From sequence record PQ516281: DNA of 64,000 nt. The stretch is one strand, 5' to 3'. The notes under the pieces were generated by a model. That model was not told the origin of the DNA, searched no databases, and was given only the letters and a program-made list of their open reading frames with translations. This document shows, piece after piece, positions 30,555-32,401 of this stretch; within the stretch, counting starts at the first letter, position 1; every line of letters begins with the position of its first letter. The position numbers were made by a program, and so were the translations under genes. This DNA is from Escherichia phage vB_EQ1.

Positions 30555-30586
30555 TAAAATTAAAATGAAGCTCCCAAAGGAGCTTA
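30555..30586 (-). terminator. terminator-like hairpin overlapping gene 39 stop
   Basis: AAGCUCC-UUUG-GGAGCUU then U-rich tract, between gene 39 and the glycosyltransferase gene. Confidence 0.55.
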
Positions 30587-32401
30587 GGACATCCATTCTT
30601 TACGAAGTTCTGAATCATCACCCAACAACATTTCAAAGAGTTCTTTCCAATTTTCAGGAAGTTTAACTACGTCGTACACAGGGTTCTGAATCATTTCACG
30701 ATATTCTGACTTTTCAAGGGAGCCTAATCCCTTGATGTATCTAATACTATGCTTAGGCAGTGTATCTTTAACTTCTTCATACTCAGCTACAGTATAAAAC
30801 CATTTTTGAGTTTTGCCAATTTGTGCAATAATTACAGGCGTTTTAACAAAGCGAATACGTCCTTGTTCAAACAATTCAGGCCAATTACTAAAGAAAGCAA
30901 GCAAAGCCGGGTAAATACTTCCAAGACCGTCATGATCGGCATCGGTCATAATTGCAATATTACGATAGTTCGTATTCTCTGCCTTTTCACCAAGAATAAG
31001 ACCTGTGATAGCACAGATATCAAAGAGCTCTTTGTTCTTCATCATATCAGCATATGACATACCCCAGCTATTCATCACCTTACCACGTAATGGGAATCCA
31101 CCGTGTAGTTCACGGTCACGAACATCAATGAGATAACCAATTGCCGAATCACCTTCTGTTAAGAACAATGTCGTATCTGCATCTTTACCGCATTGGTTAG
31201 CTTTAATATGCTTATGAACCTTAGCTTTAGTTGCCTTTTTAGCTGCTTTAGTTTCTGCAGCCTTTTCTGCCGCCAATTTACGAGCTAATGCTGCTTCAAC
31301 AATAGGCATAATCAAGGCTTCGTTTTTAAGAAGTGCCTGAGCAATTTTCTTAGCATCTAATTGGATATGATTACGAATATCACCATACGTTGACGTTAAA
31401 CGTTCTTTAGTCTGAGAATCAAAACGCATGTTGCTCATGTCTCTAATAAACATCAACATTGTGAGACATTCTTTAACACGAGCTTTAGTGACTTCAATAC
31501 CCTTATATTTCTTTTTAATACCGGGCAAAAGATGTTCGCAGATATCATCCATTACGCATTCAACATGATGACCACCATTTTTAGTATGGATGTTATTCAC
31601 ATAAGTTAAATGACGGAAGCCATCTGGCGATGTTGTGAATGCTATAGAGACTTTATCATTTTCTTGAATGATATTATCTTCACCAAATTGTTTAGCAAAT
31701 CGTTTAAAATTACCATCAACCTTTTTACCATTAAATGTGAACTTGATGTCAGGATAAACGACTGCCAATGTTTGAAGTCGGTCTAAAGTAATATCTAAAT
31801 AAATTTGAGATAAATTATGCTCTTCAAATGAAGTGAAATCAGGAGTGAAGATTACTTTAGTGCCTTTACCTTTAGATTTCTTAGAAGACCATGATTTGTT
31901 TTCCATTCCGTTTGAACAGTTAACAGTGATTTCATTTTCACCATCTGACGTAATGCCTGTAAACAACGTAGAGAAGATATTAGTTAAACTACTCCCGACG
32001 CCGTTCATACCACCAGTCTTGCGTTCAGAGTCGTCACCAAAGTTACCACCAGCCTTTGGAATAGTCCAGGCTGCTACAGGCCCAGGAATTTGTTCACCTG
32101 TTTGGTCGGTAACTAAACCTTGAGGAATACCACGTCCGTTATCTTCCACAGAAACTTGATTATTTTTAATTTGCACATCAATTTTATTTGCAAACTTAAA
32201 TGATGTACGAATAGCTTCATCAACCGAGTTGTCAATAATCTCATCGATTAATTTAACCAGACCAGGAACATATTCAACTTGTTGATATTTACCAAACAAA
32301 AAACGCTCATGTGCTTCTTTGGCCGAAGAACCAATATACATACCACTACGTTTCTTAATATGTTCTACATCCGACAATACCTTAATTTCATTTTTAATCA
32401 T
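30584..32401 (-). CDS. 39: DNA topoisomerase II large subunit gp39 (GyrB-like ATPase), fused 39+60 form
   Basis: 605 aa MIKNEIKVLSDVEHIKKRSGMYIGSS...; continuous through the region that T4 splits into 39 and 60. Confidence 0.93.
   Translation of the reverse strand: MIKNEIKVLSDVEHIKKRSGMYIGSSAKEAHERFLFGKYQQVEYVPGLVKLIDEIIDNSVDEAIRTSFKFANKIDVQIKNNQVSVEDNGRGIPQGLVTDQTGEQIPGPVAAWTIPKAGGNFGDDSERKTGGMNGVGSSLTNIFSTLFTGITSDGENEITVNCSNGMENKSWSSKKSKGKGTKVIFTPDFTSFEEHNLSQIYLDITLDRLQTLAVVYPDIKFTFNGKKVDGNFKRFAKQFGEDNIIQENDKVSIAFTTSPDGFRHLTYVNNIHTKNGGHHVECVMDDICEHLLPGIKKKYKGIEVTKARVKECLTMLMFIRDMSNMRFDSQTKERLTSTYGDIRNHIQLDAKKIAQALLKNEALIMPIVEAALARKLAAEKAAETKAAKKATKAKVHKHIKANQCGKDADTTLFLTEGDSAIGYLIDVRDRELHGGFPLRGKVMNSWGMSYADMMKNKELFDICAITGLILGEKAENTNYRNIAIMTDADHDGLGSIYPALLAFFSNWPELFEQGRIRFVKTPVIIAQIGKTQKWFYTVAEYEEVKDTLPKHSIRYIKGLGSLEKSEYREMIQNPVYDVVKLPENWKELFEMLLGDDSELRKEWMS

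Follow-up and report, generated by a model that had tools for sequence, protein, structure and literature searches.

Gene 39 of Escherichia phage vB_EQ1: an unsplit topoisomerase II large subunit beside a glycosyltransferase gene

The large subunit of the T4-type DNA topoisomerase II (Topo2L) is known in a split and an unsplit form, and here we describe the form found at gene 39 of Escherichia phage vB_EQ1 (sequence record PQ516281), using a window of 64,000 nucleotides (nt), which is the whole stretch of DNA that was analysed. In phage T4, the separation into gp39 and gp60 together with a 50-nt translational bypass is the footprint of a homing-endonuclease cassette of the HNH type, MobA, at a single site coding for the Toprim domain. 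The MobA insert was described as a homing element of 1097-1106 nt that enters Topo2L always at amino acids (aa) 466-473, with its end immediately past D490/G491; it gives both Topo2L halves conserved tails and brings the bypass cassette with it (Manning and Atkins, bioRxiv 10.1101/2022.08.31.505936). The same work knows the element only from Topo2L, terms the unsplit genomes "parental", and describes a "hit and run" re-fusion after MobA excision for one clade of Aeromonas phages. Phages T2 and T6 have the unsplit chain with gp52 as its partner, and their two-subunit topoisomerase II has been characterised (Nat Commun 2024, PMC11461880).

We consider it nearly certain that vB_EQ1 carries the intact, never-invaded Topo2L gene of the genus Mosigvirus, with the MobA site vacant, and that the adjoining glycosyltransferase gene is a separate accessory gene. 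An unsplit gene 39 in T2, T6, RB69, and most of their relatives has been known for years, both from annotation and from the literature; in GenBank, the entry for RB69 gene 39 carries a note that an insertion in T4 splits the subunit. The MobA/bypass cassette has also been described already as a mobile element invading "parental" genes, and for the neighbouring transferase a crystal structure is available and a role has been proposed. The locus is therefore of little importance beyond its correct annotation, and the useful outcome is a negative one: the idea of a hotspot shared by the sugar transferase and the T4 split fails.

Gene 39 and its vacant MobA site

Gene 39 of vB_EQ1 (30584..32401, minus strand) is a reading frame of 605 codons plus stop, with the extent given by the original prediction, an ATG start, and a GAGGAG Shine-Dalgarno sequence 5' of it. 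Annotated records supplied the proteins for BLASTP: T4 gp39, T4 gp60 with its parts joined over the bypass, and RB69 gp39. Residues 1-474 aligned to T4 gp39 1-473 with 79% identity, residues 473-605 to T4 gp60 27-159 with 86.5% identity (E 4e-87), and RB69 gp39 (NP_861694) aligned over its full length with 96%. The T2/T6 protein is likewise an unsplit chain of 605 aa, collinear from end to end at 82% identity, and a multiple alignment including T2 gp39 was gap-free over the T4 split point. Among PDB sequences, residues 1-605 matched the T6 gp39 chain determined by cryo-electron microscopy (8ylu, 1-604) in one stretch of 1160 bits, and two stretches matched an artificial fusion of T4 gp39 with gp60. 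The original prediction had read this open reading frame (ORF) as covering gp39 and gp60 together, and had proposed alignment with the T4 pair and with T2 and RB69 gp39 as the check; in these alignments the C-terminus does align to gp60, and that reading holds.

The domain content points the same way. Pfam recognised an N-terminal GHKL ATPase (PF02518 HATPase_c, E 3e-11, 44.2 bits vs. a cut-off of 26.4) and the transducer, or second GyrB, domain (PF00204 DNA_gyraseB, E 2.8e-14, 53.4 bits vs. 27). GyrB/ParE-type matches from NCBIfam span residues 4-604, and PHROG 543, "DNA topoisomerase II large subunit", covers the product end to end. The acidic residues of Toprim lie on one chain, with E416 in LTEGDSA (aa 414-420) and D487, D489, and D491 in MTDADHDG (aa 485-492). 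With this conserved Glu and DxDxD cluster, the gene 39 product combines the GHKL ATPase, the transducer, and a complete Toprim domain on a single chain.

A 441-aa topoisomerase II cleavage-religation subunit, equivalent to gene 52, is encoded at 22181..23506 (minus strand; PF00521 DNA_topoisoIV, E 8e-78) and is the probable GyrA/ParC-like partner of the 605-aa subunit. Since the window holds equivalents of both gene 39 and gene 52, it encodes the two-subunit form of the enzyme, as in T2 and T6. By homology with that enzyme, the two subunits, encoded 7 kilobases (kb) apart, should form a type IIA topoisomerase of the A2B2 type, and the 82% identity of the gene 39 product to its T2/T6 counterpart suggests that the enzyme would relax DNA in an ATP-dependent manner.

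The vacant MobA/bypass site corresponds to codons ~474-492 (A-ENTNYRNIAIMTDADHDG) at 30926..30982 on the minus strand, the stretch that is replaced in T4 by the ~1.1-kb MobA element; its boundaries rely on the element limits given in bioRxiv 10.1101/2022.08.31.505936. The junction equivalent to the bypass falls between G492 (GGT, 30928-30926) and L493 (CTT), where the DNA of vB_EQ1 is uninterrupted (GATCATGACGGTCTTGGAAGT; GAT CAT GAC GGT CTT GGA AGT), whereas T4 has GAT CAC GAT GGA, a 50-nt gap, and then TTA GGT TCT. The enzyme encoded by T4 is the same, and of the two phages T4 alone carries the insert of ~1.1 kb. It consists of a 43-aa gp39 tail, a pseudogenised mobA/60.1, an N-terminal head of 26 aa on gp60, and the 50-nt gap, for which GGA serves as both take-off and landing codon.

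The 64-kb window contained no such component. There is no split at aa ~466-491 accompanied by an HNH gene or its remnant, no C-terminal tail of gp39 (CTE) or N-terminal tail of gp60 (NTE), and no 50-nt gap with GGA codons. T4 gp60.1 and a MobA fragment gave no more than chance-level matches in tblastn and blastn, the 43-aa CTE and the 26-aa NTE matched at chance in tblastn, and the 50-nt T4 gap sequence had no similarity beyond chance. The sole real similarity to gp60 in the window is the C-terminus of gene 39 itself (30985-30587). The absence of a gene 60 and of a bypass, as originally predicted, is thus confirmed by continuous DNA at the site and by the lack of cassette parts in the window, and the MobA target in vB_EQ1 is simply unoccupied.

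An intact gene could also have been restored, if MobA had once split gene 39 of vB_EQ1 and had later been excised precisely in a "hit and run" manner. Such re-fusions exist in Aeromonas phages (bioRxiv 10.1101/2022.08.31.505936), and the vB_EQ1 lineage co-circulates with coliphages that bear MobA. However, we found no insertion derived from the CTE or NTE, which also matched at chance in tblastn, the site is gap-free against T2 gp39, and the intact site is common to all ~154 close relatives: a 151-nt probe over the homing site was intact in 154 records at ≥ 95% identity, and no MobA-invaded Mosigvirus was seen among them with this probe. A perfectly scarless excision would in principle leave no trace in the sequence. 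Altogether, we give a past invasion of this gene hardly any credence, and retain the never-invaded gene as the explanation.

The original prediction called the gene "fused", implying a derived state, and this part did not survive the comparison with other phages. A tblastn search with gene 39 over 50,697 phage records matched 1940 of them, and in a spread sample of 60 listed records, 57 had single-piece matches of ~1.8 kb; the three with a split Topo2L were T4, vB_EcoM_CE1, and Salmonella S16. A full-length insert of the T4 type was present in 41 records, and diverged versions occurred in Salmonella, Proteus, and Acinetobacter phages, including the MobA-split Topo2L of the Acinetobacter Lazarusviruses KARL-1 and fHyAci03. 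The unsplit gene 39 is thus the parental state and far outnumbers the split one, and the T4 split is a rare exception caused by a mobile element.

The assignment to a non-T4 lineage was correct in its result, and its stated reason was not. Megablast of 29100-32950 found 100% identity to Escherichia phage MRostami-2023e and ~98% to PhAPEC2, Bas46 (ChristianSchoenbein), HY126, and ~150 further records, and the classification of these near-identical records places the window in Mosigvirus, the RB69-like T-even phages. The unsplit gene by itself is no mark of such a lineage, since T2, T6, and most phages of the T4 genus are unsplit too; T2, from the same genus as T4, has an unsplit gene of 1818 nt.

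The gene order is that of RB69: rIIA, rIIA.1, the transferase gene (ORF003c-like), gene 39, a 39.1-like ORF, a zinc-ribbon ORF, and goF. Within Mosigvirus, gene 39 of RB69, PhAPEC2, Bas46, and HY126 has 96-100% protein identity, a length of 605-606 aa, and the same neighbours, with point differences only. In the RB69 reference (NC_004928, 5340-5483 of the compared locus), clustered indels of 1-2 nt relative to the window and Bas46 lie within the first ~140 nt of gene 39 and scramble aa 13-48 of the annotated gp39. Their pattern suggests sequencing mistakes in this reference of 2003, and fits the ORF-splitting errors that have been reported for RB69 genes 46/47 and 52/53.

The neighbouring glycosyltransferase gene

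The next ORF downstream of gene 39 (29441..30541, minus strand) encodes a GT-B glycosyltransferase of 366 aa, the homologue of RB69 ORF003c/gp3. It has 99% identity over 366 aa to the crystallised glycosyltransferase of phage HY126 (PDB 9iqz and 9ir0, the latter with UDP), and a Foldseek search of its structural model against the PDB placed 9ir0/9iqz first (99% identity, E ~5e-48). They were followed by PimA, BshA, MshA, PglA, and plant UGTs, with 355 matches at E ≤ 0.001 among 1552 at E ≤ 10; all 50 matches listed were GT-B glycosyltransferases. A single-sequence AlphaFold model had a predicted local distance difference test score (pLDDT) of 38 and was unusable. The nucleotide-sugar-binding residues Gly20, Arg208, and Glu281, which are invariant in the homologues from Acinetobacter phages, are present in the protein (the same Arg is numbered 207 in Thomas et al. 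2018, PMC6024577). These residues and the near-identity to the UDP-bound 9ir0 indicate that the enzyme binds a nucleotide sugar and UDP.

The sequence-based family libraries told us far less. The protein had no match in Pfam even at E ≤ 10 and none in NCBIfam, it fell in PHROG 8302, "unknown function", and a profile of four transferase sequences run against PDB sequences matched 9iqz as its sole hit. When 1.84 billion representative proteins were searched exhaustively with a HMMER profile, only 11 matched at E ≤ 0.001, and over two large protein searches the family amounted to five clusters, with 11 representatives, whose Pfam scans gave nothing beyond weak indications of GT4-conflict and Glycos_transf_1 below threshold. 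Curated sequence families do not recognise this very narrow family despite its clear GT-B fold. The original prediction of a glycosyltransferase as the next gene is borne out by structure and by near-identity to the crystallised enzyme, with no help from the standard family libraries.

RB69 ORF003c was proposed as the arabinosyltransferase (Thomas et al. 2018, PMC6024577) and ORF003c/gp3 was later listed as "beta-arabinosyltransferase 2", proposed to add a second arabinose to arabinosylated 5-hydroxycytosine (NAR 2026, PMC13326640). By analogy, the proposed role of the vB_EQ1 enzyme is that of a second DNA arabinosyltransferase acting on modified cytosine. Its gene is a separate accessory gene in the slot between gene 39 and rIIA.1 and would belong to the cytosine-arabinosylation pathway of the phage. 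The composition of the ORF is host-like, with a GC content of 0.39 overall and 0.26 at third codon positions (GC3).

The rest of the cytosine-arabinosylation cluster lies at 50811-57360 on the minus strand, ~20 kb from the transferase gene adjacent to gene 39. It contains UDP-arabinose synthesis genes, a phosphosugar isomerase, an ORF resembling thymidylate kinase, a putative first transferase of 299 aa, and a "dCMP hydroxymethylase" resembling thymidylate synthase, for which a function as 5-hydroxy-dCMP synthase is now reported.

Both KARL-1 and fHyAci03 have two paralogues of the transferase, with ~43% identity to that of vB_EQ1, in their arabinose/5-hydroxycytosine cluster. The KARL-1 copies lie beside the thymidylate-synthase-like gene and away from Topo2L, whereas the vB_EQ1 copy adjoins gene 39.

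In Shigella phage JK45 (MK962757, 2428-3022 of the compared locus), a tandem duplication of 503 nt comprises the spacer and the 3'-terminal 411 nt of the transferase gene. It creates an extra ORF of 136 aa downstream of the complete transferase gene; the duplication may be genuine or may have arisen during assembly.

The gap between gene 39 and rIIA.1

In T2, rIIA.1 comes straight after gene 39 past a spacer of 54 nt, whereas in vB_EQ1 the transferase block lies between them. Homology between the two phages runs through gene 39 to ~30591 and resumes at ~29327, ~20 nt inside rIIA.1, so that a block of 1.26 kb in vB_EQ1 (about 29328-30590) replaces ~85 nt of T2. The spacer between gene 60 and rIIA.1 in T4 is identical to the T2 spacer between gene 39 and rIIA.1, and therefore T4 has nothing unusual at the place taken by the transferase. 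The site of the T4 rearrangement is inside the coding sequence; the stop codon follows ~340 nt further on, and the transferase gene starts at a distance of ~385 nt. When the three spacers around the transferase block were compared with the window by blastn-short, no flanking repeats or promoter/stem-loop cassettes were found above chance.

The original prediction saw insertion of the transferase and the 39/60 split of T4 as alternative outcomes at a single recombination hotspot. The two sites do lie within ~400 nt of each other, the gap 3' of gene 39 differs between genera, and homing endonuclease genes adjoin Topo2L in two phages. However, the split falls in the intragenic Toprim region (30926-30982 in vB_EQ1) and the transferase in the intergenic gap after the stop codon, and the mechanisms also differ: a site-specific HNH cassette at fixed Topo2L codons on the one hand, an accessory gene of host-like composition with no flanking repeats on the other. 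Moreover, T2 has neither feature, the T4 gap between gene 60 and rIIA.1 equals that of T2, and KARL-1 and fHyAci03 carry the split gene and the transferase homologues together. With neither in T2, the transferase only in Mosigvirus, the split only in T4, and both in KARL-1 and fHyAci03, the two features assort independently, and the events behind them are therefore independent. Thus, we regard a common hotspot as very improbable, and favour a vacant MobA site within gene 39 and a separate gene beyond its stop codon.

In Gaprivervirus RZ (2787-3494 of the compared locus), an annotated endonuclease VII gene lies immediately upstream of an unsplit Topo2L, and in Tegunavirus TG1 (4336-5019) a homing endonuclease gene of the HNH/GIY-YIG type does so.

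Several genera have other contents in the gap. In Dhakavirus, Kanagawavirus, Gaprivervirus, and Karamvirus, the space between Topo2L and rIIA.1 holds two small ORFs, one of 50-66 aa and one of 94-116 aa, that are homologous among these genera, at positions 5324-5925, 5385-5936, 5376-5889, and 6682-7167 of the compared loci, respectively. Muldoonvirus has other ORFs in the gap downstream of Topo2L, and Tegunavirus TG1 has no rIIA/rIIB next to Topo2L. This variation between genera, with the gap empty or filled by the transferase or by the small-ORF pair, is the part of the hotspot idea that still stands, and it is ordinary plasticity of T4-type phages with no link to gene 60.

A more specific history could be drawn from the same comparison. 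In the Tevenvirinae, genes may have been replaced repeatedly in the slot between Topo2L and rIIA.1, which is empty in T2 and T4 and occupied by the small-ORF pair in at least four genera and by the transferase in Mosigvirus. On this view, Mosigvirus may have acquired its second arabinosyltransferase at this slot, with the remaining pathway genes lying ~20 kb away. The terminator-like hairpin and the unusually stable, conserved hairpin that flank the transferase gene could then be a regulatory or recombination module. As for the absence of MobA in ~155 Mosigvirus genomes, arabinosylated cytosine might shield the homing site, or these phages might be genetically isolated from those of the T4 type. 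Taken together with this last idea of protection or isolation, we hold the replacement-slot history to be doubtful, though far from negligible.

Nothing contradicts our explanation of an intact gene 39 with a separate accessory neighbour, although it has some weak points. In the gene 39 product, the Pfam scores of Toprim (17.5 bits vs. a curated cut-off of 23.1) and TOPRIM_C (28.2 vs. 29) are slightly below threshold. The AlphaFold model of the transferase, built from a six-sequence alignment, has a moderate pLDDT of 58.9 and suffices for the assignment of the fold alone. Besides, the sugar and acceptor specificity of the transferase is taken from papers in which the role of gp3 is proposed and not proven, and the absence of MobA from all Mosigvirus relies on counts, with at most 60 records listed per search, and not on inspection record by record.

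Local signals and flanking genes

Upstream of gene 39, at 32424..32466 on the minus strand, a hairpin AAGGGCTCCGGCCCTT with a T-run (32466-32451) is followed by the MotA-box-like TTTGCTTTA (32450-32442), 12 nt, and TAGAAT (32429-32424). T4 has the same layout 5' of its gene 39, with a hairpin, AGCTTTA, 12 nt, and TATAAT. From the known consensus of T4 middle promoters, we infer that this arrangement is a probable T4-type middle promoter.

At the other end of the gene, a terminator-like hairpin (30568..30585, minus strand; AAGCTCCTTTGGGAGCTT + CATTTTAATT) overlaps the stop codon of gene 39, with a fold z-score of only -1.25. T2 and T4 do not have this hairpin and show an early-promoter-like sequence there instead.

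The transferase gene and rIIA.1 are separated by 92 nt, and this spacer contains an extended hairpin (29369..29429, minus strand) with a perfect core stem of 11 base pairs. As RNA, it has a minimum free energy of -28.6 kcal/mol (z -4.6), and none of 200 shuffled sequences was equally stable. In the relatives compared, RB69, Bas46, and JK45, the spacer hardly varies. An Rfam scan of 29000-32700 gave one chance-level match, and none to this hairpin.

Beyond the spacer, rIIA.1 (29148..29348, minus strand) encodes 66 aa and matches PF24210 (E 2e-30), and rIIA (26922..29135, minus strand; 737 aa) is named by synteny with annotated relatives. On the other side of gene 39, the 39.1-like ORF (32465-32911, minus strand) is 21 nt (7 aa) longer in vB_EQ1 than in Bas46 and PhAPEC2, and this in-frame indel explains why the megablast matches came in two pieces. 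Finally, the TTG start listed for the goF-like ORF (33093-33524, minus strand) is probably 5' of the true ATG, which yields MANKFEV....

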